From IMG/VR virus record IMGVR_UViG_3300049139_000046, positions 1 to 62,573 of that record: a stretch of 62,573 bases of DNA; one strand, written 5' to 3'. The notes under the pieces were generated by a model. That model had not been told where the DNA came from, did no database searches, and saw only the letters and a list, made by a program, of their open reading frames with translations. Shown here piece after piece: positions 1,945 through 57,700 of this stretch. How positions within the stretch are numbered: position 1 is the first letter of the stretch; every line of letters begins with the position of its first letter. The position numbers and the translations under genes were made by a program. Origin of the DNA: a virus. Its lineage: Duplodnaviria > Caudoviricetes.

Positions 1945-1947
1945 TAT

Positions 1948-37056: not shown

Positions 37057-37058
37057 TC

Positions 37059-40330: not shown

Positions 40331-40478
40331 TGTTCGATTCCCGAATCCGCAATTTGGCGTGATGAGACCAAACGGCAGGATGGTTGGCAAGGGGAAAGTG
40401 TGGGAGAATGTAGGTTCTGATTACGCCAAGCTTCTGGCCGAAGAACCGCATAAACACTGGCGCACACTAGAGTTCTGG

Positions 40479-40502
40479 TGGTGCCCGGGGCCGGAATCGA
40501 AC
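40479..40502 (-). other. attP core: 3' end of a tRNA, probably tRNA-Leu
   Basis: GTTCGATTCCGGCCCCGGGCACCA upstream of int; flanked by inverted CACACTAG/CTAGTGTG. Confidence 0.85.
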
Positions 40503-40622
40503 GCTAGTGTGGGCGTGGGTTTAGTGCCCACTGGCGTAAAAGTGGCGTGGTCAGAAAACGGGCGGAAAGCTGTTGGACGCAGCAGACCGCCCTAACCACA
40601 ACCAGTTCTGGAGGAACTAGGT

Positions 40623-41147
40623 ATGGCTGCGCTACAGCATATCCCAATCTACGCATACGCTCGGGGCAACTGCGATCTCTGCGGCCGAGTGATCCAACGT
40701 GACTGCGGCAGGTGTGGGTTCAAGACGCCTGCCGTGCTCTACCGACCTAAGAAGATCGTCGTCGTCAACCTTCCGAGAAGGATTGAGTCGCCCATCAAGC
40801 GGCGAATGACAATGGCATTCGTGGCGAGAAAGATTCGCCAGATGGAGCTGGACAAGGCCCGAGTAAGACGAAACGCGCGGCAACGCCGTGTCCGGGAGGC
40901 AACGCCAGCGTGGGTGGATTTCGCTGCTATCCGTGCCGTCTACCTGAAGTGCGCCCAAGTCACCCGCGAGACCGGCATCCCCCATGCCGTCGATCACATC
41001 GTTCCGATCAAAGGACGAAACATGTGTGGGCTACATGTCCCTTGGAACCTCCGGATTATCACGGCCAAAGAAAACGGAATGAAGTCTAACAAGTGGATCG
41101 AAGACCTATTGGAGTGTGTAGATGACTATGACCGACCCCCGGCTTGA
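40623..41147 (+). CDS. HNH endonuclease
   Basis: ATPAW...VDHIVPI.G...CGLHVPWNL...EN..KSN. Confidence 0.9.
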   Translation: MAALQHIPIYAYARGNCDLCGRVIQRDCGRCGFKTPAVLYRPKKIVVVNLPRRIESPIKRRMTMAFVARKIRQMELDKARVRRNARQRRVREATPAWVDFAAIRAVYLKCAQVTRETGIPHAVDHIVPIKGRNMCGLHVPWNLRIITAKENGMKSNKWIEDLLECVDDYDRPPA

Positions 41148-41805
41148 CCGCCTAGTCCAGTTCGACCCCCGGAGCCGGGCGTTCCCGGTCAGAGCCCTGA
41201 TCGCAGCCAAGAAGCCACGTTCGTATACCTGGCGGGTTGGAACTTGGATGGATCAGGGACGAGAGGGCCAGTGCGTAGCCTACGCCTGGGCTCATGAACT
41301 GAGTGCGCGACCGGTGATGGTCAACGGCCTGACGACTGACTTCACTCGGGATGTCTATTGGCGAGCCCAGCAGATCGATGAGTGGGAAGGCGGCGAGTAT
41401 CCTGGAGCCAGCCCGCGCTATGCCGGCACCAGCGTCCTGGCCGGCGCCAAGGTCATCAAGAGCCTAGGCTACATCCAAGAATACAGGTGGGCCTTCAGTT
41501 TGGAGGATCTGCGCCTCACAATCGGCTATCGGGGGCCAGCCGTGCTTGGGCTGAATTGGTACGAAGGAATGTTCGATACGGACGCCGATGGCTACATCAG
41601 ACCCACTGGAGAGCTAGCAGGTGGACACGCTATCCTGGCTTACGCCAACAGTGAGCGGCACAAGCGGATCAGCCTGTGGAACAGCTGGGGCCGTGGATTC
41701 GGGAGGGACGGGATGGCTTACATCTCCTACGACGATCTGGACCGCCTGCTGCATGAACAGGGAGAGGCGTGTGTTCCTGTAGTCAGGGCAGCCCCGAAGC
41801 AGTAG
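41122..41805 (+). CDS. Papain-like (C1) cysteine peptidase
   Basis: DQG.EGQC, GGHAI, NSWG. Confidence 0.85.
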   Translation: MTMTDPRLDRLVQFDPRSRAFPVRALIAAKKPRSYTWRVGTWMDQGREGQCVAYAWAHELSARPVMVNGLTTDFTRDVYWRAQQIDEWEGGEYPGASPRYAGTSVLAGAKVIKSLGYIQEYRWAFSLEDLRLTIGYRGPAVLGLNWYEGMFDTDADGYIRPTGELAGGHAILAYANSERHKRISLWNSWGRGFGRDGMAYISYDDLDRLLHEQGEACVPVVRAAPKQ

Positions 41806-41882
41806 TCGACTGCCGGCACCGGATCGCGGTATGCTCAGGCGAATCCCGAGCGACAGAACAATGATCCCCATGGAGACTCCGG

Positions 41883-42137
41883 ATGGGTACTGTGATTATC
41901 CGCGAGATCGAATGGGTGCCTGTCGAGAACCGTCTCCCAGATGACTTCGTGAAGGTCGATGTCTGGATGACAACTCCGCTTCCGACCTTTACCCTAGGTT
42001 GGGCGGACAGCTTCCGGGTCATAAACGCCTTCCGTCGCGCCGGGATGTGGTGGTATCCCCTTGAGAGCGGGCAGGCGCAGGCACTACGGTCGGAGTGCAT
42101 CACGCACTGGGCGATCATCCAGGGGCCGCAGTCATGA
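41883..42137 (+). CDS. Hypothetical protein, DUF551-like
   Basis: WVPVENRLP...ITHW. Confidence 0.6.
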   Translation: MGTVIIREIEWVPVENRLPDDFVKVDVWMTTPLPTFTLGWADSFRVINAFRRAGMWWYPLESGQAQALRSECITHWAIIQGPQS

Positions 42138-42166
42138 CAGTCCTACCGTAACCACTGATCACATGA

Positions 42167-42202
42167 GAAAGAAGAAGCCGCCCGGGGGCGGCTCTACTTC
42201 TT
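42167..42202. terminator. Probable terminator hairpin between convergent genes
   Basis: AGCCGCCC-GG-GGGCGGCT with pyrimidine-rich tails on both strands. Confidence 0.65.
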
Positions 42203-42293
42203 AGCCCTGCTTGGGCTGCTGACCAGGTTGTGCCGGTTGCGGCTGCTTGTTCTGATCTTTTTCCTGCTCGCCCGGCATCGGGTTCGTTGCCAT
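42201..42293 (-). CDS. 30-aa Q/P-rich micro-protein
   Basis: GAGGT RBS, MATNPMPGEQEKDQNKQPQPAQPGQQPKQG, followed by the terminator. Confidence 0.55.
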   Translation of the reverse strand: MATNPMPGEQEKDQNKQPQPAQPGQQPKQG

Positions 42294-42461
42294 ATCTGTA
42301 CCTCACTGAGTAGCGACCGAAACGGTCACGGTATAGGGGCAAAGGCTATGCCCAAATGCTGTACGGATTTACAGTGCAGGAGGTAAAATCGTCGGGCCGG
42401 TGAGATGTATCAGCACCTCTCCAGCCCTGGCCACCAACCACTCTTGAGGGAGAGTCGGCAA

Positions 42462-43127
42462 ATGGTTAACCGTAATCGTATCCCAGTCCCAATCGAACAG
42501 AAGTTCCATCGGTGGACCGTCGTTAGTTTTCACTCGATGAACCCGCGAAGGGGGCAGATATGGAATGCTCGCTGTGAGTGCGGAGTAGAGCGTCCCGTCA
42601 CGGCAGTGTCGCTGCGAAACGGCGCCAGCAAAAGCTGCGGTTGTTGGAAAGCGGAAGTTGCTGGAAATATGAAACGGACGCATGGCATGAGTGATACGCC
42701 AATCTATGAATCATGGACGGCTATGCGTCAACGATGCTTGAATCCACACTGGCCCGACTTCCACAACTACGGAGGTCGAGGAATATCCATCTGTGATTCC
42801 TGGGCGTCCTTTGAACGATTTTTTCAGGACATGGGACCTACGTTCCAACCTGGATTGACGCTCGATCGCATAGACAATAACGGCAACTACGAACCATCCA
42901 ACTGCCGCTGGACGACTTACGCCGAACAGAACCGCAATCACCGCCGTAATATCTGGGTAGACACGCCACAAGGACGGATGGTTATGAAAGATGCCGCACG
43001 AATAGCCGGCGTCCCTTACAAGGTTATGAAGAAACGCATTCAGCAAGGCGTAAGTCCGGAGGATCTTCTCGCCCCAGCCGAATCACTCCAGAAGTCGCCT
43101 GACGTCCAGACGGTTAACTCTGATTAG
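42462..43127 (+). CDS. HNH-type homing endonuclease
   Basis: CECG...SCGC...WTAMRQRC...TLDRIDNNGNYEPSNCRW. Confidence 0.9.
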   Translation: MVNRNRIPVPIEQKFHRWTVVSFHSMNPRRGQIWNARCECGVERPVTAVSLRNGASKSCGCWKAEVAGNMKRTHGMSDTPIYESWTAMRQRCLNPHWPDFHNYGGRGISICDSWASFERFFQDMGPTFQPGLTLDRIDNNGNYEPSNCRWTTYAEQNRNHRRNIWVDTPQGRMVMKDAARIAGVPYKVMKKRIQQGVSPEDLLAPAESLQKSPDVQTVNSD

Positions 43128-43971
43128 ATGCTGGACTGCAAGTGCCGCTGTTTCTTCTATTCTCGCCTTGTAGTGCTCATCTTCGGATAACTGTTCACCG
43201 GCTGCTACAGCTAATGACAAAGATCGGATTCCTAGCCAGCGGCACATGGCCTCATGGACACGATCGTGGTCAAAATTTAACTGAGCCACGTCGTCTTCAT
43301 AGCCCAACCGACGGGCCGTCACCAACTGCTCCTGATACAGCAGCGCAGCCTTCGATTTCACGACGGCGGCTGCTCTGGCCGCGCATCTTTCTCCCATAAA
43401 TAGCGCGACAGGAACACGATCACAGCACCGCCAAAGCAACTACCAGCGACCATGAGCCACCAGTCGTACCAGTAGCTGCCATCCTCAGGTGCATTGGGCC
43501 ACGCGAACAAACTGGCTAGCACCCCCGCGATGAACAGCGAGATGGAGAGCGAATGCTCCCGCAGGCACTTCATTGCAATCGTGGGAAGTTAAGCCCTGGC
43601 AGTCCGCCCATCATCGACAACAAGTAGAGGATTGCGATGATCCCGAGGATCACCAGCGCCACAGTCTTGAACGGCGGGGGAAGCGGGATGAGTGTGATGA
43701 TCCAGTAGATCAGACCAAGGATCAGGATCAGGATGAGAATACTAATCAGGGTGTTCATGGTGTTTCCTTTTCAGGCGGGTTTTTCGACTTTTGCCTTGCA
43801 AAATGCTTGGCTACCGAGAACGGGAATCAAACCGAAGTTGAACCCGATCGGCGCCGGGTCTTCCAGGTACTTCTGACAGTGCTCCACTGACGACCAAGGG
43901 ATCACGATGGTCACTGGTGCAGGGCCATCAGGAGTCAGTACCAGAAAGAGAACAACCAGGTATGCGGTCAT
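43083..43971 (-). other. Small ORFs after the lysis genes (43083-~43361, 43358-43573 TM, 43570-43758 Thivi_2564-like membrane protein, 43771-43971)
   Basis: Coupled ORFs, several hydrophobic. Confidence 0.6.
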
Positions 43972-43972
43972 C

Positions 43973-44254
43973 TCAGACTCCAGGTGTGCAGGCCATCAGG
44001 ATCGCTTCCAACTCCGATACATACGTCCTCAGCAGCAACTGCTCGCGCCTCAACGCCAGGACCAGTCCATAGTCGGTTTGGGTTGCAAGTTCCTGGTCCG
44101 TCAGCAGCTCCGGCTTCGCCGGCATACTGCTCACGCATGAAACCGGCACCGGGATTCGGACCTCGATCGGTTCCGGGATCGAAATCGTCGTTGGTGGTGT
44201 CTGACAGCCGGTCAGCAGAGCGACAAAGCCAGCAATCAGGAAAGTCCATTTCAC
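43973..44254 (-). CDS. o-spanin (Rz1-like lipoprotein)
   Basis: Lipobox LTGC, Pro-rich, overlaps the i-spanin end. Confidence 0.8.
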   Translation of the reverse strand: MKWTFLIAGFVALLTGCQTPPTTISIPEPIEVRIPVPVSCVSSMPAKPELLTDQELATQTDYGLVLALRREQLLLRTYVSELEAILMACTPGV

Positions 44255-44652
44255 AGACTCGCCCGTATTTCCTGAAGCGCCTTCGAGCAATCACCTGTTC
44301 CAGCCCGGATAGAGGTCGTCAGGGAGGCGATCGTCTGCGCGGTGGCACGGTTGGATAGGCGGACCCTGTCCAGCGCCTCCTGAGTGGCTTTCCGGCCGTC
44401 CTCGCCCAGTTTGGCGATCTCGATCACCTTGTCGTTCTGGGTCTGCAGCATCGACTTCAGGTCGGTGTTCGACTTCCGAAGCTGCTGCACGACAGCTTCC
44501 ATCTGCAGCCGGGACGAACGTTCTTCGTGATACGCCTCCCGAGCCTTGTCCAGCCGCCAGCCCTGGAACCAACCGACCCCGACGCCACCGACCAGCAGGC
44601 CGCCGACCAGCGCGATCCAGATCAAGTAGGGGGCGATGAAGACTTTGATCAC
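44251..44652 (-). CDS. i-spanin (Rz-like)
   Basis: N-terminal TM segment, coiled coil, C-terminal Cys. Confidence 0.75.
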   Translation of the reverse strand: MIKVFIAPYLIWIALVGGLLVGGVGVGWFQGWRLDKAREAYHEERSSRLQMEAVVQQLRKSNTDLKSMLQTQNDKVIEIAKLGEDGRKATQEALDRVRLSNRATAQTIASLTTSIRAGTGDCSKALQEIRASL

Positions 44653-44909
44653 GCGCCCGCCTGATCCGTTTCGTCAGTGGGATAGGGATGAGACTTGCGG
44701 TGGTTCTGGTAGGTCAGGATGATGAAGGTGATCAGCGCGCAGCCAGGACCAATGATTCCGTAAAAATGTTCCGGCAAATCTTCCTTGAACGGCACGATGA
44801 CCATCGGCACGCCGGCCACGATCACCACGATGAGGTTCAGCCACCAGGCGATCTTCTGCGAGACAGTGACCTTGCGGCGGTTCGGTATTGATGGGACTTC
44901 GGTCGTCAT
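44649..44909 (-). CDS. Putative holin
   Basis: Two TM segments, between endolysin and spanins (MTTEVPS...). Confidence 0.6.
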   Translation of the reverse strand: MTTEVPSIPNRRKVTVSQKIAWWLNLIVVIVAGVPMVIVPFKEDLPEHFYGIIGPGCALITFIILTYQNHRKSHPYPTDETDQAGA

Positions 44910-45316
44910 GTGTAAGTCACCGTGTCGAGTTGGAAATGGGGACCATCCAGGAACCGTGGGCCGAACGCTACCCCGCCCCATTCGACGGGAATGCCGAGCG
45001 AGACGGACGACGGCTGCATGCACTTCAGCCACAGCCTTTGGTAGAGCGGAAACTCCCAACGCATCCCCCCATCGGCCTGGATGCCCAGATCGACGGCATG
45101 TCCGGTCAGGTGCCGGCTGTTCATGGTGCGGCTCGCGCCGGTCTTGACGTACTCGGCCTGCCGTTCTCTGGTCCGTAGCCCTTCGATGACGAAGACCCTC
45201 ATGCTGGGCGCATCAGCGAAAGCTTCATCGAACAGGTAGAACGCCCGCTCAGTGACATTGACTAGATCGTGGTGGACGCCCATCAGGCGGGTCTGGTCAC
45301 GCGCCGACAATTTCAT
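44906..45316 (-). CDS. Endolysin, M15 family peptidase
   Basis: EGLRT..RQ...SRHLTGHAVD...DGPHFQL. Confidence 0.92.
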   Translation of the reverse strand: MKLSARDQTRLMGVHHDLVNVTERAFYLFDEAFADAPSMRVFVIEGLRTRERQAEYVKTGASRTMNSRHLTGHAVDLGIQADGGMRWEFPLYQRLWLKCMQPSSVSLGIPVEWGGVAFGPRFLDGPHFQLDTVTYT

Positions 45317-46033
45317 CAGGCACCAGGCACGCCATAGATAGCGACGCCGATCAGGATGATCACCACGATCAGCAACCCGGCGACGATGTACTTATGGGAT
45401 GGCTCCATAGCTTTCCACTTCGCCAGAAGTCGGCTGCCACTGAAGTCCGACCGACTCGCCTGATACCGGTCATTTGATCGTTTGCGCTGCTCGTCGTCGT
45501 ACATCTCATACTCCGGTCGTTTTGTAACGGTTCAGTTCAGCGGTCAGGTCAGCGACCTGGTTCTGGAAGTCGGAAACCTGCCGCTGCAGCCGCTCGATCA
45601 TTGCGTCCCGCGACTTGAGTTCGCGCTCTAGGACATCGTTCTCGCGCTTGAGTAGTGACATCTCATTTCGCATGACTTGGAGATCATTCTTGGTCTTGTG
45701 CGCTTCATCACGGATTTCCCGATGAAGTTCTTCTCGCTGTTGCTCGAGTTCCTTGCGGGCGTTCTCGCGAACTTCTACAGCTCGACGCTCGGCCTCCTCT
45801 CGCATCAGATTGGCTCGGTCCTCTGACTCCCGGCGAAGCTGATTGGCACGGAACTTGGCTTCGTCCTTGCGGATCTGCTCGTTCGCTTTTAGGGTACGGA
45901 TCTGCCCAAAGAGCCGGAACATCCCACCGACCACGGTCACGAACACTGTCGTCAACAGACCGACAGCGATGGGATGCGTCTCTATGAACTCCCAGATCAT
46001 GCTGCTATCCCGATTCGACGCCACCAGCGCCAT
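45316..46033 (-). other. Two membrane proteins (45316-45504; 45506-46033 TM plus coiled coil)
   Basis: Hydrophobic segments, directly upstream of the endolysin. Confidence 0.65.
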
Positions 46034-46043
46034 CGTGATTCCT

Positions 46044-49000
46044 TTACGAACCTTTGAAAGAAAGGGTGTGAACGTTCGCGGTCGTCGCTCCAGTGCTCGT
46101 CCAGGATGGCGTGACCGATGTCGTCGCCGCTACCACTTGCTTGGCTACCGCCGAGGTCCAATACGCGGCTCCGTCCAATTCCGACGACAGCAGGGTGAAA
46201 CCTGTGCAGGCGTAGGTCGCGGGGTTCGCTCCGCTGTCAGAAGCGCAGAAAGACACGATGACTTCGTTGGCCTGGGCAAGCACGCCAGAGGCTTGCGTGA
46301 ACGGGCTGGCTCCGTCGGTATTCGCTGCCACCACATCCGACGGGCTGGCAATCGCACCCGTGATCTTGATCAGGTGGATGACGCAACCGCCGGTGTTCCC
46401 GCTGAAGGTCACCGTGGCATAGTGATCCGCACCGCCCACCCCGTTCGCGCAGAAGTAAGCGGCTGATTTCTGCCCGGCTCCGGCTGTCAGCACCGATCCC
46501 AGAAGCGTATAGGTGTTGCCCTTCGAGTCCACCAGCGACGAGATGTTGGCGGAACTCCAGGACAGCAGTACCAGATAGGAGTTGCCCGACGCTTCCGTTG
46601 TGGCAGTCGCTGAGAACGCATCGGTATTGCCCAGTCCCTTGCCCACCAATACCGCATCGACAGCAGTAGCTGAGGTGACCGCGATCGTGAAAGTCTCGGA
46701 TGTTGTGGAGCCCTCAGATGAGGTCGCGAGGACCGTGATCGAATGCGACGAAGCCGAACCGAACGAGAGCGTGCCGGCCTTGGTCACGACCCCGGTGGTG
46801 CTGCTGATGGCGAACTTTCCGCCGGCACTATCGGAGAGGCTGTAGGTGACGGTATAGCCCGAGTGTGTTGCTATAGCTGTGATTCCGACCGCGGTGCCGT
46901 TGGCTGCGCCGTCGCTGACCGTGTTCGTGGCCGAATTGGAGTCGGTGATCGAACTCAGCGTAGAGGGACCAATCGCCAGCGCATCTGCGTGGATCGGCTC
47001 CATCGTCTCCAGATTCCAATGGGCCGGCACGAAGGTCTTGGTATTGTTGACGCTGGCTGGGTACGACTGGCTGGACGGATAGCTGCCTTCCCAGGTGCCG
47101 GCGTTGAAGTGCGTGAACTGCCGGGCGTCGATCGCGTCGCGCGCCCACGGGAAGGCGCCGGCAGATGCCTCGACCCAGGCCGGGACCGCGGAGGCGGCGA
47201 TCGGGGTGACCCCGTGCCCGGTCATGCTGGGCGAGCCGGCGACCGTGATGTAATTGCCGTCGTTGTAGTCGGCCGTTCCTTCGACCGCCACGTATTCTGG
47301 ATAGCTGGCGCCGTTGGTCCGCAGCTTGATGTTGTCGCTGTAGTAGTAGAGCGTCCCGTGGTTGCTGACCGACTCATAGAAGGCAGCGATGCTCGAAGTG
47401 CCGGGGCCCGCCTTCGCATAGTTGCCGATCGCGTCCAGCCAGATCTCTTCGTAGGCTGCGCCTTCGCCGTCCCAGTCGTCGCCGGAGAGAGTGCCGTCGA
47501 CAAATTTATCCTGGCCGTTGTAGATCAAATTGTTGATCAGCGCCGCGCGACAGCCGCCTTTGAGCAGCGGGTTGCGCGTGAAGTTGTTGGCCCAGAAGTT
47601 GCCGTAGAGCAGCAGGTCGTTTGAGTTGTCTTCTAGCAGCGTCGCACCCGATCCGGCCGTCAGCATCTCGGCAATGATGTTGCGCGCGAGGGTGATATTG
47701 CGGGAGGTGTCCAGCCGCCATTCGGTCGCATTGGCACCAGAGAAGTCCCAACCACCGATGTCGAGCGAGCCGTCCATGCCCCACGAGAACGAGCAGTTGT
47801 AGATGATCCCGTTGCGCGCGCCCGGTTGGGTTTCCATCGCATCTTTGCCCGCACCCACCCCTGTGCCGGGCCGAAACTTCATGTGGCTGATGATGAAGTT
47901 GTGGGTCCTGATCACAAACTCGCCTTTGATGACGGTGATCCCTGGCGAGGGAGCCGTCTGTCCTGCGATCGTGAAGTACGGGTTGGTGATGTTGACGGTG
48001 GCGCCAGCCATGTCGATATTGCCCGACACCTCAAAGACAATGATCCGCGGGCCTGACGCCTCGACCGCCGCACGGAAGCTGCCGGTGCCGGACGCGTTGA
48101 GGTTGACCACTTTGAGGATGGTTCCGCCGGCACCGCCAGTGGTGCTCGCCCATCCCTGGATCAGACCGAAGTGGTTGGGATTCGCGGTGTAAGACGCGAC
48201 CACTGGAATCAGCAGGGCTGATGAGTAGGCCACTGTTCCAGCGCCACCTGCGTTCGTTGCGATGACGCTCGAGCGGACATACTTTCCTACCTGGGAAGAT
48301 GTCACCAGGAAGGTCGATGCCGTCGCCCCGCCGATCGCAGTCCATCCCGACGTTCCGTTGTCAGACACCTGCCACTGGTAGGCATACGATGTCGGTGACT
48401 TGGTCCAGGTGCCTGTGTTACTCGTTAGCGTCGCACCTTCCAGCGCCGAGCCGGAGACCGTCGGTACTATCGTGTTGACCGGCACCGCGATGATGATCGG
48501 ACCCAGAACGTTGGAGTCAACCGCCGTCCCGCTGCCAGATGCGTTGGAAGCGTTCAGCGTGAGACGGATGTACTTACCGACATGCGTGGAAGTCAGGGCA
48601 AGCGTAGTCGTACCGCCGGCGCCAGACCAGTTGTCTACGCCGTTCGATGACATTTTCCAAGAGTAGGTGTAGGAGGTCGGCGAGCGGGTCCACGTACCAG
48701 TGGTTGCCGACAGCGAATTGCCTTCCTGGACCGTCCCTGAGATGACGGGAACGGCGGTGTTGACCGGCGTTGTGCCGGCGATCTGTGTGGTCGGGCTAGA
48801 GTAGGCCGGCAGACTCTCACCATTGGCGTTCGTGGCAATGACCCGAACCCGGATGTACATATCCACTTGAACGGCAGTCAGCGTCGTGCTGGTCGCCGTG
48901 TTGATATTCGTCCAGCCGGTTGCACCGTTACTGGACTGCTGCCACTGGTAGCTATAGCCGGTCGGTGTTCCCGTCCATGTGCCACTGCCCGCCGTGAGAA

Positions 49001-49532
49001 CAGAGCCCTCGGATGGGGTTCCGGTGACTGTCGGCGCGACCGTGTTGACTGGGACATCCGCTGATACCGCATACGACAAGCCGAACTTTTCATCGATCGC
49101 AAGCGATCCTGCTTCTACGGTGTAGCGAATCCAAAGCCCGCGGGTGTCACCAGCAGCGAAGTCACCACCCGATGTGGCGGTCTCGGCGCCGTTGACTTCC
49201 TCGAACGTCACTCCCGGCGGCGCAGCGAGTTCGTTGGCAATGGCAGCCTCAGTCTCATTGATCCCTGCCACCGCCCATCCGAGTCCGACAGTAGTAGTGG
49301 TCAGTGCTGTCTCGGTCTCGACGAACAGCTTGAGTCCGGTGGCTGCAGTGGAGGACTCGACATAAACCATCCGGTACTGCACCGTCCCTGCTAGGCGCTC
49401 GGCATCGCTGATCCCACCGAAAAGGCCGGATGCGTCGCCCTCGTACGCCAGCGTCGCCGACTTCGCGCCGCCCAGCGACAGTTCGGGGTCGGAGTTGGTC
49501 GCTCCGCCGGAGAGGTAGAGGGCGACAGTCAT
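46044..49532 (-). CDS. Virion appendage: three Ig-like repeats, PL1-like pectate lyase domain, cadherin-like domain
   Basis: PVNT.(A/V)P.(V/I).G repeats; TTGGAGG...NLNASGTGSFRAAV...PRIIVFEVSG...TIAGQTAP; YSLSDSAGGKFAISSTTGVVT. Confidence 0.8.
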   Translation of the reverse strand: MTVALYLSGGATNSDPELSLGGAKSATLAYEGDASGLFGGISDAERLAGTVQYRMVYVESSTAATGLKLFVETETALTTTTVGLGWAVAGINETEAAIANELAAPPGVTFEEVNGAETATSGGDFAAGDTRGLWIRYTVEAGSLAIDEKFGLSYAVSADVPVNTVAPTVTGTPSEGSVLTAGSGTWTGTPTGYSYQWQQSSNGATGWTNINTATSTTLTAVQVDMYIRVRVIATNANGESLPAYSSPTTQIAGTTPVNTAVPVISGTVQEGNSLSATTGTWTRSPTSYTYSWKMSSNGVDNWSGAGGTTTLALTSTHVGKYIRLTLNASNASGSGTAVDSNVLGPIIIAVPVNTIVPTVSGSALEGATLTSNTGTWTKSPTSYAYQWQVSDNGTSGWTAIGGATASTFLVTSSQVGKYVRSSVIATNAGGAGTVAYSSALLIPVVASYTANPNHFGLIQGWASTTGGAGGTILKVVNLNASGTGSFRAAVEASGPRIIVFEVSGNIDMAGATVNITNPYFTIAGQTAPSPGITVIKGEFVIRTHNFIISHMKFRPGTGVGAGKDAMETQPGARNGIIYNCSFSWGMDGSLDIGGWDFSGANATEWRLDTSRNITLARNIIAEMLTAGSGATLLEDNSNDLLLYGNFWANNFTRNPLLKGGCRAALINNLIYNGQDKFVDGTLSGDDWDGEGAAYEEIWLDAIGNYAKAGPGTSSIAAFYESVSNHGTLYYYSDNIKLRTNGASYPEYVAVEGTADYNDGNYITVAGSPSMTGHGVTPIAASAVPAWVEASAGAFPWARDAIDARQFTHFNAGTWEGSYPSSQSYPASVNNTKTFVPAHWNLETMEPIHADALAIGPSTLSSITDSNSATNTVSDGAANGTAVGITAIATHSGYTVTYSLSDSAGGKFAISSTTGVVTKAGTLSFGSASSHSITVLATSSEGSTTSETFTIAVTSATAVDAVLVGKGLGNTDAFSATATTEASGNSYLVLLSWSSANISSLVDSKGNTYTLLGSVLTAGAGQKSAAYFCANGVGGADHYATVTFSGNTGGCVIHLIKITGAIASPSDVVAANTDGASPFTQASGVLAQANEVIVSFCASDSGANPATYACTGFTLLSSELDGAAYWTSAVAKQVVAATTSVTPSWTSTGATTANVHTLSFKGS

Positions 49533-50524
49533 CAGGCTGGCAAAGTCACGGAGCCACTACCGACAAGCACCAGCAGGGTGATGGCGCTGTCGCTGACCGT
49601 CGGGCTAAGTCCGCCCGTGTTATTGGCCGTCGCGCTGGGCGTATAGGTGCCGTTCGCTACATCGGTAAAAGTGTGCGTGAAGGTGAAGTTCGGCGAGGCC
49701 CCGCCGATGGTCGCTGCTGTCGGGCCGTAGCCCGTAGTCAGGCTGACGCTTGCGGTCGGCGTCGGCGTGGATGTGATCGTGCCCGAGACGGTGACGCTGT
49801 TGGCGCTTACAACGGTGTCGATTGTTTCAACGACAGGCGCGGTATCGGGGACATTATCCGTAACGGCTGGATGATCACCGGAGTGATAGGTTGGTATCCC
49901 AGTCGGAGTCAGATCACCGGTCCCCACGCCCCCAGTGTTTGCATCGCTCAGGAGCGGCCTGTACCAGAGCGGCGTTCCCGAAGCAATCGTGTCGGCGGTG
50001 TAGGTGAGAAGGTCCGCCATGATGGCGTCGGCCTCTGCTTCGTTCGCTGGAGCCCAGACCGACTTCTCTGCTATATAGCCGCGAAAGCGGGAAGCAGCGT
50101 TGTCGATGGCCGCCGACAGACGCAGTCGATCCAGTTCCCGTCCAGCGTCCGTGGAACCGGCCATCGTCGTGACACGGGTCGTCGTCCCACCGACGTACTG
50201 CTTGTGGACAATGCCGCCCGCTGGATTGTTCGGGCCGGTAAGGACGCCGACAAGAATCCAGGTCCCCGTCGCAAAGGCAACGGATGTGATGGTCGACGCC
50301 GCTCCACCTTGCGCGGACCGGGCAGAGAATGTCGGGGTCGCATTAAGCCGTGCGGCGCTGTACACCAGACCCGTGCTATCCGCGAGGTGGAATATGTTGC
50401 TGGTCGAGCCTTGCGCTTCTGATGTCTTCGCCCAGCACGCCGAGAGCCTCCACTCGGACTCCAGCGGCCCGGTGCCTAGTGTGGCATCGAGATACTCGTT
50501 ACCTGCATTGAGTAGAACGCTCAT
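49532..50524 (-). CDS. LamG/concanavalin-like plus Ig-like virion protein
   Basis: SACWAK...GTWILVG...FRGYIAE..VW pattern. Confidence 0.6.
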   Translation of the reverse strand: MSVLLNAGNEYLDATLGTGPLESEWRLSACWAKTSEAQGSTSNIFHLADSTGLVYSAARLNATPTFSARSAQGGAASTITSVAFATGTWILVGVLTGPNNPAGGIVHKQYVGGTTTRVTTMAGSTDAGRELDRLRLSAAIDNAASRFRGYIAEKSVWAPANEAEADAIMADLLTYTADTIASGTPLWYRPLLSDANTGGVGTGDLTPTGIPTYHSGDHPAVTDNVPDTAPVVETIDTVVSANSVTVSGTITSTPTPTASVSLTTGYGPTAATIGGASPNFTFTHTFTDVANGTYTPSATANNTGGLSPTVSDSAITLLVLVGSGSVTLPA

Positions 50525-50527
50525 CGC

Positions 50528-53401
50528 TTATGCCGCCAGTGTTGCGGTGACAACTGCGCCGCTGTTAGCAGGAGACCCGGACCCTGCGGTGATCGTGATG
50601 ACCGAACCAGCCCTCGATGGCGTGAAGCTCGTTGCCTGGCTGAAGCCCACCGCGTAGAGCTTCACCTCACCCGTGACCGCCGCATTCATCGTGAAGGAGG
50701 TCGTGGTGGTGATGGGCGTCTCGGGATCGGTGTTGAAGACGCAGATCCGCCAGGTGCCCGCGTGCTGGATGGCCCAGCCCTTGAGCGTGCCCGTGACGCC
50801 TGTCAGGATATGCGTCGTTGGCACAGCGACTGCCGTGGTATCGCCCCAGGTCTGAGCAGACGCGAACTCCACATCCGTTTCGCCGTTCACGAACTCCTGG
50901 ATGTGCCCTCCGCGATGGGCGGTAAAGAAATTACCGGCGGAAAGATCAGCCCATGCAGAGCCCGATACCTCATTGATGATGGTCGTGGAGTCCGGCGCAA
51001 TCAGCGGCTTGTAGTAGTGATCCTTGCCGAGCGCGGTTGCCTTGTAGGCCCCGCCGTCCAGCACCGGCAAGCCCATGAACCGAGTCAGGCGCATGACTTG
51101 GCGGGTGTAGCTGGCTACTGCCGTGCCGTAGCGGGTGTTGATGTCCTGAACCTGGGATGGGTCAGTGATGACGTGGTCGTAGGCCACCGTCAGGCCATCC
51201 CAGAAGTTCAGAATCGAGCGCGTGCATTGCAGGGCGTAATCCGCCGTCCTGTTGTATCCCGTCTGGTTCTGAACGTCTTTGGATTCCCAGGTAACAGAGG
51301 CATATACCGAATCCGCAAAGCTCCCCAGGTTCGTGGGATCTCCCTTGCATCGGGAGTCCACTACCCCAGGATAAAGCCCACCTGCCGTGTAGAAATTCTC
51401 GATGTACAGCATGTTCTGCGGAGCGGAAGCAGCAGAGGTGTTTTGCCCCGAGTACATCGAAATCGGCGTCGAGTCGTGGTAAATCTCATACGACATCGAG
51501 GCGTACAGAACGTGATGCACGTCTGTCACTCGGAAATTGCAACTGACGAACTGGTTGGCCGTCTCAGTCCAGTTGCTGCGTGCGTGAAAGACGCCCTTGC
51601 CGCCGGAATAGAAGTAATACGGCAGTGTCAGCGTGGCCGGTGCGGCGGCGGTTTCCGAGGCCGCATCCTCAACGATCAATCGGATCCAGGGGTAGTTGTA
51701 CTGACGGCCGACAACTTGCGGCTTGAGTTCGTCATGGATATACAGAAGTGCCCGACGCTGATCCGTGCCCTGGGAGCCGATCATCCCGTTTTCAGTGAGC
51801 TTCCCGGACCGGAAGCTGTTGGACGGCATCGTGTAATACCCTGCATGCGTTGGCGACTGATCCAGAACGTCGTTGAACATCCAGTAACCGGACAAATCGG
51901 CACGCATGGAGAACAGCACGAACAGAGCGAAGTCCTGCGACCACGTGGAGTCCATGACGACACCGCCGCGATCTGCGTGGATCATCCGCCACCATTGATA
52001 GAAGCGCGGGGTGTTCGCGTTGTAGCTGGTGCTTTCGTTCCAGAAGCCACCGGCCATCGTCGCGTCGGGGACGATGTAATCGCCCTCCACTACCGGCTTT
52101 AGGGCGTCGTGCGCGGTCACACAAGCCGCGTATGTGCTCCCTGTGGTCACATCCTGGTAGACCAGCATGCTCAGGAGCACCATCGCCGTTTCGTCGGAGT
52201 CCACCGGGAACGCGGATGCGTGGGTGCCGCTGTTGTAATAGTCGGACCAGTACGCTGCATAGACCGTCAGGCGGTCTTCGATGGTCGTCTTCTGGGCATC
52301 CGAGAACAGTTCTGGGTAGTGGTACTTCACCCACGAATACGCCATGCAAATATCTGCACCGTACTGCCGGAAGTCGTTGCGACCGGTGTAGAGAAAAGTG
52401 GTAAGCAATGACAGGTACTGCGTCTTGAAAAAGTCTTGCCATACTTGAGGCGTGCTCGCGCCATCGATTGCCAAGCGTAGCGCCAGCCCGGGGACAACAG
52501 CGGCTATATCTGAAACCGAAGCCGCTCCCGTTGTGATCGGTTCAAGCTGGGAAACAAGGTAGTTGTAGGTTGTGGGGTCGGCAACGATGGATGCTTGGAT
52601 CGTTGCCATCCTCGCGTCAGTAAGAAGCGGTGGTCCGCCTGATGCAACTGGAGGAGGCGCGACCACTACTCCGGTGGCGTTGACAGTGAAAACCCCCAAG
52701 GCAAGGGCAGTGACTGAGGACGAAACATTTCCACCCGCCCAAGTAATGACCCCCGCCTTAAAGGTCGCCGTGGCCGAACCGTTCTTTAGGACCGTGATGG
52801 CAGGCGAACCATCAGCCACATAGGCGAAGTTTGTCGGGGCACTGAAGGTAATCTTCGTCGGAGTTGTCGCGTCGTCCCGGGTTGCCACCACGTCTGCGGT
52901 TGCTAGCAAGGTATTCGACGCGTTCCGCAGTTCAAGTTCCGGGGCACTAGAGAGCGCCGTGAAGATCGCATTCAGCTTGCCGGCTTGCGTCCCCTGCGCG
53001 TCGATGGCAGTCTGGGTCGTGGCATCGAACGCAATGTCATCGACCTGCGGTGGCGGTGCAAAGTCATCAGGGACAACCGCCGTGGGCAGAGAAGTTTTTG
53101 ATCTTGTGCCGTTGTCGTCTGTGGCGCGAACGGTGCCCGTCAGGACAGCACCAATGTCCGCTTCTCCGACCTCGTAGGAACCAGCGGCAGCCCCAGCAAT
53201 CCCAATGCCATTCCGATACCACTGCTTCGCATACGTGATGACTCCGGTGCCAGTCCACGTCCCGTCAGTAAGCGTGAGCGTTTGTCCGACCTCCGCGGTG
53301 CCGCTGACGACTGGTGCTACGGTGTTGATCGGTCCAGGGACAGACCCGCGCGAGAACCCGTGGATGGACGCGTATTTCAGGAAGTCGCCGTAAGCAATCA
53401 C
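50528..53401 (-). CDS. Virion appendage: Ig-like, helical toroid-like and heparinase II/III-like regions
   Basis: PINTVAPVVSG repeat; GGFWNESTSY; GVFHARSNW...HH; GTG overlaps the upstream stop. Confidence 0.55.
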   Translation of the reverse strand: MIAYGDFLKYASIHGFSRGSVPGPINTVAPVVSGTAEVGQTLTLTDGTWTGTGVITYAKQWYRNGIGIAGAAAGSYEVGEADIGAVLTGTVRATDDNGTRSKTSLPTAVVPDDFAPPPQVDDIAFDATTQTAIDAQGTQAGKLNAIFTALSSAPELELRNASNTLLATADVVATRDDATTPTKITFSAPTNFAYVADGSPAITVLKNGSATATFKAGVITWAGGNVSSSVTALALGVFTVNATGVVVAPPPVASGGPPLLTDARMATIQASIVADPTTYNYLVSQLEPITTGAASVSDIAAVVPGLALRLAIDGASTPQVWQDFFKTQYLSLLTTFLYTGRNDFRQYGADICMAYSWVKYHYPELFSDAQKTTIEDRLTVYAAYWSDYYNSGTHASAFPVDSDETAMVLLSMLVYQDVTTGSTYAACVTAHDALKPVVEGDYIVPDATMAGGFWNESTSYNANTPRFYQWWRMIHADRGGVVMDSTWSQDFALFVLFSMRADLSGYWMFNDVLDQSPTHAGYYTMPSNSFRSGKLTENGMIGSQGTDQRRALLYIHDELKPQVVGRQYNYPWIRLIVEDAASETAAAPATLTLPYYFYSGGKGVFHARSNWTETANQFVSCNFRVTDVHHVLYASMSYEIYHDSTPISMYSGQNTSAASAPQNMLYIENFYTAGGLYPGVVDSRCKGDPTNLGSFADSVYASVTWESKDVQNQTGYNRTADYALQCTRSILNFWDGLTVAYDHVITDPSQVQDINTRYGTAVASYTRQVMRLTRFMGLPVLDGGAYKATALGKDHYYKPLIAPDSTTIINEVSGSAWADLSAGNFFTAHRGGHIQEFVNGETDVEFASAQTWGDTTAVAVPTTHILTGVTGTLKGWAIQHAGTWRICVFNTDPETPITTTTSFTMNAAVTGEVKLYAVGFSQATSFTPSRAGSVITITAGSGSPANSGAVVTATLAA

Positions 53402-53676
53402 GGCTTGACCGCCTTGTCCCACTCGCTCCAAGTGGCGCCGTCAGCATCCTCAACCCACGTCTGCGTCCAGCGGTAGGTGGCGTCCTCGTAGTAGATGCTG
53501 GTGAGGTAGCCATCCACTCTGGTGGACCCGCCGGACATAGTGCTGAAATTTGGAAGCGGGTTCCCGTCAGAATCGGTTCCTCCCCCGCTACCCGATGTGA
53601 CGAGGGAGCCATCGTCATTGACTAGGACTTTGACTTTCCGTCCGGCAGCGGTCTCGCCGATGATGAGCGTAGGCAT
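53398..53676 (-). CDS. Small virion-operon protein
   Basis: 92 aa, AGGAGG RBS, first gene after the late promoter. Confidence 0.7.
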   Translation of the reverse strand: MPTLIIGETAAGRKVKVLVNDDGSLVTSGSGGGTDSDGNPLPNFSTMSGGSTRVDGYLTSIYYEDATYRWTQTWVEDADGATWSEWDKAVKP

Positions 53677-53707
53677 CTTTCCTCCTGAGATACTGGCCTC
53701 AGAAGGC

Positions 53708-53739
53708 AGGATGACCGGCGGGTGGTAGGTTTTTTACAC
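53708..53739 (-). promoter_or_regulatory. Late-promoter motif for the appendage/lysis operon
   Basis: GTGTAAAAAACCTACC-N11-ATCCT. Confidence 0.8.
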
Positions 53740-53839
53740 CCGAGACGCGCAGATGATCTGGCGGTAAACTGAGCGCAGCCCAGACGTGCGGGAAACACGC
53801 TGGGCTGCTAACCACCTACCTCACCTGGAGTGACGGCAA

Positions 53840-54631
53840 ATGGCTGATCAGAAGTCTACACGGCGCGGCGAGTGCAACATCACTCACGGGCACGCGAAGG
53901 TAAACCGTACCTCACCGACCTACAGATCCTGGCGAAAGATGCTCGAGCGTTGCCGAGATCCACGCAATATCGGATGGAAGGACTATGGAGGCCGAGGCAT
54001 AACCGTCTGCGACCGTTGGCTAACCTTTGAGAACTTCTTGGCCGACATGGGCGAACGTCCGCTTGGACGTTCCATCGACCGGCTCGATCACGACGGCCAC
54101 TATGAACCCGATAATTGCCGGTGGGCGACGGCTGAGGAGCAAGCTAACAATAAGCGCAATAGCGCATTTATGGAGTTGAACGGCGTCACCAAAACCATAA
54201 CGGAATGGTCCCGGGAACATGGGATATCGGAGAACGCTGTTCGGAGGAGACTGTCTCTCGGATGGTCGCTAGATCGGGCGCTCACCCAGCCATCACGTGG
54301 TCTAAGGCAAGACCTCATCGAATTTCGTGGCAAAAAGATGCTCAAAAGACACTTCGCCAAACTGATTGGGATGGAACCGCACAATGTCTACATTCGGTTC
54401 GCTGCTGGAGAAACATCTGAGCACATCGCCGCCAACCCGACCCGTGAACGAGTGTTCATTACCATCGGTGAAGAAACCTTGATCACTGCCGAATGGTCAC
54501 GCCGTTCTGGCGTTGAGCGTAGAACGATTGCCTACCGTATCAAAAAAGGTTGGCCGCCAGAGAAGGCGGTGTTCTACAAGGAACCTAAAGCTTCTTCCAC
54601 CAGACCCAGCCAAACGCCCCCAGCGGGATAA
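53840..54631 (+). CDS. HNH-type homing endonuclease, opposite strand to the late operons
   Basis: TYRSWRKMLERC...YGGRGITVCDRW...SIDRLDHDGHYEPDNCRWAT; repeated C-terminal HTH-like modules. Confidence 0.9.
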   Translation: MADQKSTRRGECNITHGHAKVNRTSPTYRSWRKMLERCRDPRNIGWKDYGGRGITVCDRWLTFENFLADMGERPLGRSIDRLDHDGHYEPDNCRWATAEEQANNKRNSAFMELNGVTKTITEWSREHGISENAVRRRLSLGWSLDRALTQPSRGLRQDLIEFRGKKMLKRHFAKLIGMEPHNVYIRFAAGETSEHIAANPTRERVFITIGEETLITAEWSRRSGVERRTIAYRIKKGWPPEKAVFYKEPKASSTRPSQTPPAG

Positions 54632-54721: not shown

Positions 54722-57700
54722 TCAAAGCGAAGTACGCATCTCTTTCGGGGTGCGCTTGAGCTGTCGCTGAGAGGCATCCATCTGGGCGTTCTTGACTCGG
54801 GTTGCGATCTGCCGGCTGGTGATGACCATCGGTGATCCTGGGTTTCTCAGGTTCCAATCCCGAACTTCCTGCTGCGCTGCCGCAACAGCCTCGGGATCTT
54901 TGTCGATTATGCCCTTTGCCCAGTCTTCTGCAATCCTTGATTCCGTTTCCTTGGCGAAGGCGATCCGGTTCTCCCGGGTACGACGGATCTCAGATTCCTG
55001 GGCGACGACCGCCGGCTGGAACCCGACCGCCTTCCAGAGAGCGTCGCTGGGGCTGGTCTCAACCTGCTTCCGGCCCCGAGTGTCAGGGTAGTACCCTTTC
55101 TCGGTCATCGTCAGGGCCTTGTCTACGTCCTTAAATGCCTTGGGCGCAACCTGCATCAGGCCCTTGATCGGATCGCCTGAGAGCGCCATCCCCATGCCTT
55201 TGAACAGATCCTGAGCGGCCGATCCCGAAACACCCAGGATCTCGGCCACATCCCGACTCTTGTCTCCGCGGCCCTTCAGCAGAATCGCTGATCCGGGGAT
55301 CAGGTTCGACATTCCCAGCCGCCGGGAAACGTCGATCGGCAGTCCGGTCCCGGAAATACCCTTGAGCACGAACTCAGAGGCGTCCTTGCCGAGCAGACCT
55401 TCCAGCGCCTGCTGCCGGTATTCCTTGGACTGCTTGTTGATTCCCAGCGACTGCAGGATGGTGTCGATGACGTCGTCCAGATCCTCACCGAATGGCAGTC
55501 CCTCTGCGCCGGCCATGAGCATCAGCATGCCCAGCGCGAGCAGACGTTCTTTCTTGGGCAGCCGGATCAGAAACTCGCCGTAGGCAATGCTGTACTGCTT
55601 GAACGTCAAGATCGTAGCGCCCAGCGGGTTCCGCGCCCAGTTCGGCCGGTTGCCCTTGTTGTAGATGCCTTGCGTGGCTTCCACGGCCTGTATGGCGAAG
55701 TCGTAAGGATTGGCGATCTTCTTCTCGACCGCGCCCTTGTAGGCGGCAACGAAGGTCGTTTTGCGATTGAACTCCTCAGCCAGACTAAACAGCCGGCCCC
55801 ATCCGAACAGGATTCGCCTAGCCGTATGGCTCCCACCGAAGCCCGGATTAGCTTCCCCGATCAGGTGGTGAATCTCCTGCGGGGAGATGTGGCCGTCCTT
55901 CTGTGCCTTCTTGACCGCCCCTGCGAGTGCCGGCTCCATCGGTGACCGGGCGGCAACAGACTTCACCGCCGCCAGCAGATGCTTGGCCGAACCCGCTGTC
56001 CCGAGGTGTTGGGACAGGTACGGAAATGTCATCATGAACGGCTGCGTCATGTTGACCATCGCCGAAGCAATCGAGCCACCGAGATACTGAACGAACATCA
56101 GCCCGCGGATCTTGGCTGACGGGTCGAACGGATTGTTGACTGCCTTGACCAGATTCGCCGCTTCATCAGCCACGTCACCCGGAGCGTTGTCCTTGGCGTT
56201 CTGGACTGCCTCCAGCATCGCCTTGTTCTCCAAGGCAGTTGCCGTGGCTCGAGCGTTGGACGTAATGAATGATGCCAGTACCCGGGTCAGATCCTCTGAG
56301 AAGCCTGCGGTGCCCTTGCGCCGGATCAGCCGCTTGGATGCCGACCGCTGGTTACGGGCCAGCTTCAGGAACGCCTGTGTCGCGGCGTTCTTGGGGATGT
56401 CGGCAGCGTCGGCAAAGACTTCCAAGGTGTCAGGGCTGATACCGGCAAACAGCTCGTAGACCTCTTGCGGGAGAACACCTTGTCGAACCGTCAGGCCGGG
56501 CGCGGCCAGTTCTCTGGCAGCCTTGGTGGCATCACGTTCTCGGTCGAACAGTTGGAAGGAAACCTGCTCGCCGGTGTCATCGGTGACGTACACCGAGTAC
56601 CGTCCGAACCGCATCAGCGGAGCATAACCGCCGGCCTTCAGTTCTTCGATCCGCTGGGCCTTCTCAGTGACCGCATCCATCTCCTCCTTCTTCAGCCCGG
56701 CGCCGGCCAGGATCACCCGGGCATCAGCCACGGTAGGAGCGGCCATGACCTGATCCTTCAGGACACCGCCTGCTTCCTTCAGCATCTCAGCCTTGCCCAA
56801 GTCATCCAAGCTCTTGTCGATTGCCGCTCGAGACTGACGGTAGAGCCGGATCTGTGGCGGCGTCATCTGGTACTTGTCCACTAGTTCCGCATCTGTCCAG
56901 ATCTTGCCCTTGGCAGGGTCAGGATCGGCCAGCGTACCGTCGAACAAGGCGGTGGCTACCTTGGCCTGATCAGCGTCTGAGGCCCGCGGCTTGGCGATGT
57001 CCCGCAGCGTTTCGATCTTGGGGAAGATCGTCGGCACCAGATCGGCGGCTTCGTTGGCGTAGGTGTTCACCGCACCGATATGCCGCTGCACGGCATCGAA
57101 GGTCTTCTTGAAGGCAGGATTGACGGTGGCCTTGTGGAACTGGGTTCCAAGGGTTCGGTGGAACCAGTTGAACCCACGCTGAGAGGCGAACAGGTCGCCG
57201 ATCTCCTGTGAGATCCTGGTAGGCGTTAAAAGCTCCAGCGCCGCCCTGCGATCCGTTGACTTGGTGATGTCTGGGTCGTCTGCGCTGAAGGCGCCGCTGT
57301 TGCCGGTTGCACTCTTAACCTGTTCAGGACGGAAAGCGATGATCTCCTGCATTTCACCGAGCATGCCCTTGATGAAAATTCCATCATGGCCGTCAGCCTT
57401 CGCTTTGGCTGCGATCTCCTGTGGTGTCAGGTTCGATCCCGTAGGTTTAGTGCCGTCGAATATGAACGGATTTTCCACGCTCAAGTACGCCGGAACGACG
57501 TTCTCGCCTCCTTTGACAACGGGGGCGTACTTGCTGCCCTTCGGGGCGTTATCGTCCCATTCTCGAGTCATCGCGTATTCAGACGAATATCCCGGGAATG
57601 CAGAAAAGTAGAACCCGGGGCCGAATAGCAGGTTGTTGGCGGTTCCACCCTTTGCCCCATCGAACGCGCTAATGTCAGTCTTGGTCCCGTGATACACGAC

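Follow-up and report, generated by a model that had tools for sequence, protein, structure and literature searches.

Few selfish genes are commoner in phages than those of homing endonucleases, and to our knowledge little is known, outside the T-even phages, about how they stay harmless to their carrier. Short stem-loop antisense RNAs that lie over the ribosome-binding site (RBS) of an element's own gene are exemplified by RNA-OUT/RNA-IN of IS10 and by the antisense RNA of R1162/IncQ (RF00043). In the window studied here, which is the whole 62,573-bp stretch (~60% G+C) of IMG/VR virus record IMGVR_UViG_3300049139_000046, three nuclease genes of the HNH or endonuclease VII type are each headed by a structured leader, and each leader is probably, judging from its sequence, a gene for a SymR-type cis-antisense RNA on the minus strand, that is, a portable cassette that would block translation of the nuclease. 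The prototype, SymR of Escherichia coli, is a cis-antisense RNA of ~77 nt with its 5' end at +6 of the target gene symE and its -10 element within the first codons of that target (Kawano et al., 2007; PMC1891008). As reported in PMC4147584 and PMC1891008, SymR overlaps the symE RBS and start codon and reduces the amount of SymE protein roughly seven-fold while altering the mRNA only modestly, and two silent point mutations in the symR -10 element inside symE abolish SymR and raise SymE.

The nearest precedent for the control of homing endonuclease genes is provided by the cis-acting hairpins of T4 type. According to PMC2988022, RNA structure at the RBS restrains endonuclease translation in the T-even I-TevI, I-TevII, I-TevIII and segB genes and in Aeh1 mobE. 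RalR/RalA of the rac prophage likewise consists of a prophage toxin that cleaves nucleic acids and a small RNA that restrains it, but RalA is described as pairing within the coding region and as needing Hfq (PMC4147584), and it matches the cassettes of the window in neither sequence nor structure. CfrI of cyanophage S-PM2 (Millard et al., 2010, cited in PMC12197685) is a phage antisense RNA tied to a homing endonuclease gene; in the account given there, however, its gene lies between psbA and that of the endonuclease and another role is proposed for it, and it has no relation to SymR.

The three leaders lie at positions 40560-40629, 42394-42469 and 53775-53846 (copies 1-3), where a preliminary description of this DNA had placed them, and all have the anatomy it had reported: a GC-rich hairpin of 33-34 nt (40560-40592, 42394-42427 and 53775-53808), the box CT(A/G)(A/G)CCAC, a second hairpin with GGAG, and ATGG(C/T)T opening an open reading frame (ORF). 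All three ORFs have significant matches in PHROGs to families of the HNH or endonuclease VII type (E between 7.6e-29 and 1.7e-66); a Pfam search with the three proteins gave no match at E <= 0.001. HNH1 (40623-41147, plus strand, 174 aa) is of the endonuclease VII/HNH type (phrog_26577, E 7.6e-29; phrog_1035, endonuclease VII, E 5.4e-10), and an H-N-N motif is visible in its translation. HNH2 (42462-43127, plus strand, 221 aa if it starts at 42462) matches phrog_374, an HNH endonuclease, from residue 12 (E 2.5e-60). An alternative in-frame ATG is found at 42405, within the hairpin; the start at 42462 has GGGAG 9 nt upstream, and the family register places the ATG at RNA positions 4-6. HNH3 (53840-54631, plus strand, 263 aa) matches phrog_3377, also an HNH endonuclease (E 1.7e-66). 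HNH2 and HNH3 are 36% identical, and no relation of HNH1 to either was detected by BLASTP, which bears out the earlier view of the leader as a portable module, the cassette being common to unrelated HNH families. A fourth HNH gene (37053-37694, plus strand; phrog_1872/826), which overlaps the end of an ssb-like gene, has no such leader or antisense cassette in the covariance-model scan of the window.

A model of one copy recognizes the other two. R1, a covariance model derived from copy 3 alone, was run unfiltered on both strands of the whole window; below copy 3 itself, its two best matches were copy 2 (21.3 bits, E 0.0055) and then copy 1 (16.6 bits, E 0.061), both full length and in a register identical to that of copy 3. 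Next came the hairpin of copy 3 read on the plus strand (E 0.39), and all other matches had E >= 0.97. Since a MAFFT alignment of the three copies was not structural, model-guided alignments were used. In the resulting alignment, which is fitted to the structure and comprises only three sequences, 88.8% of cells are paired, against 71.4 +/- 3.9 in shuffled alignments and 31-49% with slid partners, and both sides change in 14 of the 30 pairs. The short boxes taken alone (CCACNWACC and CTRRCCAC) are not enriched in the window and were discarded as a signal; the signal of the leaders resides in their architecture.

Comparison with Rfam points to SymR. At gathering thresholds nothing was found in the whole window, whereas E-value reporting at the three sites gave, as the best match, SymR (RF01809) on the minus strand of copy 3, with 31.8 bits over model positions 1-77 (E 0.006, 0.002 or 1e-5, depending on the search space). 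SymR also matched copy 1 in the same register as copy 3 (40557-40628, minus strand; 19.9 bits, E 4.5). The Rfam check recommended in the preliminary description therefore yields nothing above threshold and a sub-threshold SymR match, and the family which that description left unnamed is SymR-like. The RF00043 model gave only a chance-level match, on the plus strand of copy 1 (21.4 bits, E 4.1). The test in the opposite direction is the stronger one. R2, a covariance model built only from the three window copies, matches the annotated symR of E. coli K-12 with 50.1 bits (E 2.5e-10), covering 7836-7916 compared with the annotated 7836-7912, and this is its only match at E <= 1 in the 4.64-Mb K-12 chromosome; the covariance-model matches are thus mutual. 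The annotated 5' end of symR is at +6 of symE, and the model matches in the window start at 40628, 42467 and 53845, which are the +6 positions of HNH1, HNH2 and HNH3, respectively. The features that define RF01809 in position and shape recur here: an antisense RNA over the RBS and start codon with its 5' end at +6, and two hairpins, namely a 5' stem-loop that holds the complement of the Shine-Dalgarno sequence (anti-SD) and a GC-rich 3' hairpin. SymR is built like the window copies: in its 5' stem-loop, which also holds the anti-SD, the end opposite the start codon is paired with GUGAUU, and UAG and the GC-rich hairpin come after it. Primary sequence is shared as well (AGNCAU at the 5' end, GUGRUUAGC, and the hairpin top CGUGUU...GCACG). 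The window differs from the E. coli system in that the targets are HNH nucleases and not the AbrB-fold SymE, in that a GC-rich soil phage carries three copies per genome, and in that a LexA-like box is found at one copy only.

The predicted RNAs are alike in layout. The first, as1 (40553-40628, minus strand, ~76 nt), with a fold of -34.9 kcal/mol (z -5.04) and an R1 E value of 0.061, would start at +6 of HNH1 and comprise a 5' stem-loop (40628-40594) whose loop contains the anti-SD CUCCA, a spacer, the 3' hairpin (40592-40560) and the tail GUUUUCUG; its 3' end is the end of the model and not a mapped end. The second, as2 (42387-42467, minus strand, ~81 nt; -36.7 kcal/mol, z -3.61, R1 E 0.0055), is predicted to begin at +6 of HNH2 and to consist of a 5' stem-loop (42465-42431), a 3' hairpin (42427-42394) and the tail GACGAUUUUAC. 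The third, as3 (53768-53845, minus strand, ~78 nt; -45.6 kcal/mol, z -6.54, SymR score 31.8 bits), begins at +6 of HNH3 in the same prediction, and its parts are a 5' stem-loop (53845-53810), a 3' hairpin (53808-53775) and the tail GCUCAGUUUAC.

The search of other genomes with a model of the three copies, as had been suggested, returned many further copies. R2 was run over 88 loci (530,624 bases), collected via HNH3 (80 loci), HNH1 (3), HNH2 (1), the peptidase neighbour (1) and an exact pattern of the copy 2/copy 3 type (3). Three clear matches were obtained, at loci L015 (52.8 bits), L050 (36.7 bits) and L037 (31.6 bits), all of them among the 80 HNH3 relatives and each beginning at +6 of an HNH ORF. 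The HNH1 and HNH2 relatives in viral contigs (three loci and one locus, respectively) gave no copy under default filters. The three viral loci found by the exact pattern were rejected: they look like chance occurrences within coding sequence, and R2 either does not match them or gives E >= 1.5. Some phages have several copies: the record of L050 holds a second cassette, which heads a gene with NUMOD3 and endonuclease I-like similarity, L098 (cassette 1501-1580, minus strand; ORF 1575-2186, plus strand), whose copy likewise begins at +6 of its ORF, belongs to such a phage, and L159 has three matches within 2 kb (1206-1282, 1763-1840 and 2971-3046), two of them on HNH-type genes.

A pattern derived from these copies (GGGC, gap, GCCCTRRMCAC, gap, ATGNYT, N7, ANNNTA) was found in 91 viral stretches (80 loci listed) and in at least 120 places in bacterial genome contigs (80 loci listed). 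Among the matches listed, R2 confirms 76/80 viral loci, with 5 extra copies inside them, and 65/80 bacterial loci; the 15 unconfirmed bacterial loci (11 from Amycolatopsis and 4 others) are taken as chance or unrelated. The confirmed bacterial records among the matches listed come from Beta-, Gamma- and Alphaproteobacteria, Acidobacteriota, Planctomycetota and Streptomyces. Since the pattern imposes the ends of the stems as well as CAC, ATG, NYT and ANNNTA, and the loci were then filtered by the antisense-strand model, these positions are not independent evidence; covariation inside the stems is not built in. In the 75 distinct viral members obtained in this way, 88.6% of cells are paired (69.3 +/- 0.6 in shuffled alignments, 36-44% with slid partners), and both sides change in 23/30 pairs (440 cells). 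Covariation, on which the structural claim of the preliminary description had been made to depend, is therefore present both in the window copies and in the family. Two pairs, 2-61 and 6-57, are G.U or U.G in 70/75 and 72/75 members, which corresponds to A.C on the sense strand. In 74/75 of these filtered members the antisense strand folds more stably than the sense strand, with a mean difference of 10.3 kcal/mol, and a tetramer resembling the anti-SD overlaps the apical loop in 71/78 members when the window copies are included.

The conserved structure belongs to the strand opposite the HNH mRNA. None of 200 shuffles folded as well as the antisense strand of any copy (z -5.0, -3.6 and -6.5 for copies 1-3, with energies of -34.9, -36.7 and -45.6 kcal/mol), and the antisense minimum-free-energy structure makes up 37-48% of the ensemble, which amounts to a single well-defined fold. 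Folding of the sense strand is weak (z -3.3, -1.6 and -2.4), copy 3 for example reaching -32.1 kcal/mol (z -2.35), as against -45.6 kcal/mol (z -6.54) for the antisense fold. Two sense-strand mismatches in the hairpin of copy 2 are G.U pairs on the antisense strand. The CCAC box is fully paired (4/4) only as antisense GUGG with CCAU, the antisense of the start codon, and the U.G pair in this CCAU/GUGG helix, which is A.C on the mRNA, is kept in 3/3 window copies and 72/75 family members.

The preliminary description had instead proposed that the leader hides its own RBS and start codon, and a purely cis-acting mRNA leader of this kind, in which a sense RBS hairpin and CCA/UGG pairing conceal both as in T-even I-TevI and mobE, is one alternative. 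RBS-sequestering hairpins are indeed established for T4-type homing endonuclease genes (PMC2988022), and the sense folds of copies 1 and 2 show an outer CCA/UGG stem around an inner Shine-Dalgarno (SD) hairpin, so that the pairing of the CCA box with the start-codon TGG holds for these two copies, but its full 4/4 form is confined to the antisense strand. The fold is not formed by copy 3: the second hairpin around GGAG, which is present at all three sites, lies outside its sense minimum-free-energy structure, and its AUG is 92% unpaired. Across copies 1-3 the unpaired probability on the sense strand is 0.34-0.41 for the SD and 0.28, 0.40 and 0.92 for the AUG, values that fall within the range seen at 15 control gene starts in the window (SD 0.42 +/- 0.16, AUG 0.49 +/- 0.24) and are not lower; with weak sense folds and strong antisense folds, the idea of a self-concealing leader is not upheld. 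The conserved wobble pairs exist on the antisense strand only, the antisense fold is the more stable one in 74/75 members, and a cis leader has no role for a minus-strand TANNNT, a -1 pyrimidine and a +1 A that are conserved inside unrelated coding sequences. In the T-even phages the hairpins exert their effect in cis, and a late promoter inside the hairpin lifts it (PMC2988022), whereas here structure and promoter signals are on the opposite strand; a sigma-70 scan of the leaders detected no promoter inside the hairpin, which the T4 scheme needs. The two marks of a T4-type element, an unusually buried RBS and AUG and an internal sense promoter, are accordingly not seen in the window, and we regard a purely cis-acting leader as quite improbable.

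The promoter-like signals that would drive a SymR-type RNA are found at a fixed place. A minus-strand TANNNT lies exactly 7 nt upstream of the A at ORF +6 in all three window copies: the putative -10 elements are TATGCT for as1 (40636-40641), TACGAT for as2 (42475-42480) and TAGACT for as3 (53853-53858), all on the minus strand and all within codons 5-7 of the respective HNH gene. Among 12 copies found without imposing the hexamer, 10 have TANNNT at this offset (the three window copies, L015, L050, L037, L098, E. coli, L119b and L128b); a thirteenth, weak match (L159, 2971-3046) was excluded, as it has no start codon in register. E. coli symR has TAGAAT at the same offset (+19 to +14 of symE), which may be the hexamer mutated by Kawano et al. 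In 73 pattern-derived members, positions that the pattern does not impose show a pyrimidine at -1 (71/73) and G at -15 (50/73), both of which would fit a promoter. At the other end of the predicted RNA, the antisense strand is rich in U over the 9 nt beyond the 3' hairpin, with A in 30-45 of 72 members at each sense position from -9 to -3.

The same stretch had been read on the sense strand as -10 boxes in front of two of the leaders. Both boxes are real and may serve sense promoters; the signal that is found there throughout the family is A-richness, and the A-rich stretch is the tail of the antisense RNA, U-rich on its own strand. TAAAAT (42384-42389, plus strand) may represent a sense -10 element for HNH2, the U-rich tail of as2 as read on the opposite strand, or the two at once, and TAAACT, which occupies 53765-53770 (plus strand) and does not begin at 53766 as first given, is a possible -10 element of an HNH3 sense promoter and/or the as3 tail. 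HNH3 opposes the direction of both of its neighbours and therefore requires a promoter of its own. A terminator-like hairpin upstream of HNH2 (42175-42194) suggests that this gene is its own transcription unit; it is a GC-rich palindrome between the ORF at 41883-42137 and the HNH2 cassette and scores as terminator-like on both strands.

These sense signals bear on a further alternative, in which the leader is a structural or insulating element (a 5' mRNA stabiliser, a terminator or an insulator of the inserted cassette) and its likeness to SymR, in two hairpins and an SD complement, is convergent. In copies 2 and 3, sense -10-like boxes precede the hairpin by 4-5 nt and would place it at the 5' end of the mRNA, and a sense TANNNT occurs 3-7 nt before the hairpin in 18/72 family members. 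Such an element, however, leaves the covarying 5' stem-loop that spans the start codon, the fixed +6 register and the minus-strand promoter signals unexplained, and the likeness to SymR extends to primary sequence (AGNCAU, GUGRUUAG and the loop GUGUU...CAC) and is unique in the K-12 chromosome. Nor is the element a sense terminator, since the sense hairpin is followed by CUAACCAC with no U-run. We consider this explanation highly improbable.

The genes headed by the cassette were analyzed as two sets, 73 distinct viral proteins of at least 60 aa and 59 proteins from the bacterial loci (the latter among the matches listed). One-third of the viral targets (24/73) are related to HNH2, HNH3 or HNH4 of the window; nine of the other 49 are of the endonuclease VII type and one more is a LAGLIDADG protein, so that at least 34/73 are nucleases. 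The remaining viral targets include a resolvase, a RadC protein, DnaJ-domain proteins, a beta-helix protein and many small proteins of no known type. HNH-related proteins account for only 1/59 of the bacterial-locus targets; Pfam assigns others to resolvase, RadC, ArdA and AAA ATPase families, and the majority are unannotated. In bacterial genomes the cassette sits mostly on small unannotated genes (35 clusters among the 59 proteins); with those for ArdA, RadC, the resolvase and the AAA ATPase, they resemble genes of integrated mobile elements. No member of the SymE_toxin family was found by the Pfam scan among the 73 viral and 59 bacterial-locus targets. The cassette is portable well beyond HNH genes, with a strong bias towards nucleases in viral contigs.

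Although the target proteins are unrelated, they have a common N-terminal consensus, MAxxxxT, which stems partly from the search pattern. The C-rich codon 7, which the pattern does not impose, mirrors the G-rich positions -15 and -14 of the putative antisense promoter. The consensus looks like a constraint at the RNA level written into the N-termini of the proteins.

The range of targets is relevant to a third alternative, in which the RNA is the same and its role another: nuclease and antisense RNA would form a type I toxin-antitoxin pair for prophage maintenance, abortive infection or phage exclusion. SymE/SymR and RalR/RalA are classed as type I systems with toxins that act on nucleic acids (according to PMC4147584), the phage of the window is temperate (integrase at 39356-40390), and the cassette is also found on accessory genes that do not encode nucleases, such as those for ArdA, RadC and a resolvase. 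HNH nucleases are plausible toxins. However, the presence of three modules in a single 62-kb phage and the restriction of the nuclease bias to viral contigs (at least 34/73 compared with 1/59 in bacterial loci) fit the control of mobile nucleases at least as well. We hold a toxin-antitoxin role to be unlikely.

We therefore return to the control of mobile nucleases by a SymR-type antisense RNA, which we infer, as regards production of the RNA, its ends and repression of translation, from the sequence and from the analogy with SymR. A weak promoter, consisting mainly of a -10 element (TANNNT, often with a preceding G) within codons 5-7 of the HNH gene, would direct antisense transcription from the A opposite ORF +6. 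The resulting RNA of ~76-81 nt would begin with AGCCAU, antisense to the start codon and paired with GUGGUU, and would carry the anti-SD in or beside the apical loop; a short spacer (UAG or CAG) and the GC-rich hairpin would follow, and a more or less U-rich tail would end the transcript. By analogy with SymR, a constitutive RNA of ~78 nt would anneal to the nuclease mRNA, whose 5' untranslated region, RBS and start codon it complements perfectly; contact would probably begin between loops, and ribosomes would be kept from binding. Only once sense transcription exceeds the supply of antisense RNA would nuclease be made, and the face-to-face promoters may add transcriptional interference. The translational off switch envisaged in the preliminary description is in this form probably correct, given that the closest characterised relative, SymR, blocks symE translation.

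A number of results speak against this assignment. The curated gathering score of RF01809 (61 bits) is reached by neither of the two SymR matches (31.8 and 19.9 bits), SymR has no Rfam match to copy 2 at E <= 5, and the targets are of the HNH or endonuclease VII type and not SymE, the AbrB/SpoVT-fold toxin; on account of the score and of the target, the cassettes are variants of the SymR kind and not members of the Rfam SymR family. TANNNT is absent from the fixed offset in 2 of the 12 unbiased copies (L159b and L121b), conservation of the -35 region across the family is weak at best, with a faint richness in T, and a simple sigma-70 scan of both strands at the three sites found no full -35/-10 promoter. 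In the same scan the 3' hairpins did not score as terminators, and in the tails of copies 2 and 3 the U-run is 5-6 nt away from the stem; the E. coli symR prototype likewise has no canonical U-tract. Through the pattern and the antisense filter, conservation at the fixed positions and part of the strand bias of the family arise by construction. Every hairpin is mirrored on the other strand, and the sense fold may have some effect in cis. The only public sequencing run that contains this DNA is a DNA run, perhaps of the source sample itself.

The cassette is common in phages and other mobile DNA and is not catalogued as an RNA family. A literature search, which misses most subscription journals, returned no description of SymR-like RNAs at phage nuclease genes. 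More tentatively, and with somewhat less than even confidence, we suggest that SymR might be the one studied member of a very large family of antisense-RNA "safety-catch" cassettes, each made up of a sense leader and an antisense RNA gene, which would cross phyla and accompany homing endonuclease genes, as well as other accessory genes that pose a risk, in phages, prophages and conjugative elements; such a cassette would let a gene land at any site without harming its carrier, and resident copies could silence incoming related nuclease genes in trans. If the cassettes act as SymR does, symE/SymR would be no enterobacterial oddity and would represent one branch across elements of Pseudomonadota, Acidobacteriota, Planctomycetota and Actinomycetota; a sizeable unannotated RNA family would be added to the annotation of phages and mobile elements, together with a compact, self-contained repression module for toxic genes. 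The cassettes would then constitute a general RNA-based answer to the problem of carrier safety, packaged with the gene itself.

A palindrome of the form CTGT-N8-ACAG, CTGTACGGATTTACAG, is located just upstream of the HNH2 TAAAAT box (42359-42374). It is the sole match to this motif in the window, where 0.89 matches are expected by chance, and we take the motif to be the core of a LexA-like box; the arrangement is reminiscent of the SOS control of symE. As a feature of the family, LexA-type control was rejected, the strict motif being found in 0/70 members.

With respect to the phage itself, a megablast search against phage records gave no close relative. The phage is temperate, as its integrase gene (39356-40390, minus strand) indicates. 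Between this gene and copy 1, the stretch 40476-40502 (minus strand) resembles by eye the 3' end of a tRNA (T-arm, acceptor stem and CCA), and ARAGORN reported no whole tRNA there; this stretch is probably the attP core of a phage that integrates at a tRNA gene, which would put HNH1 and its cassette at the prophage end in a lysogen.

HNH3 sits head-on between a gene for a protein of 967 aa (50528-53431) and a gene for a protein of 1240 aa (54722-58444, minus strand). The latter protein carries an ART-PolyVal ADP-ribosyltransferase domain and strongly matches PHROGs of the polyvalent, DarB-like kind; its C-terminal 400 aa, used as a query, retrieved zero relatives, and the peptidase neighbour, used in the same way, retrieved a single distant locus. 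Immediately upstream of the HNH3 TAAACT box, inspection by eye reveals an inverted repeat, GCAGATGATCTGG, at 53749-53761, which could be an operator.

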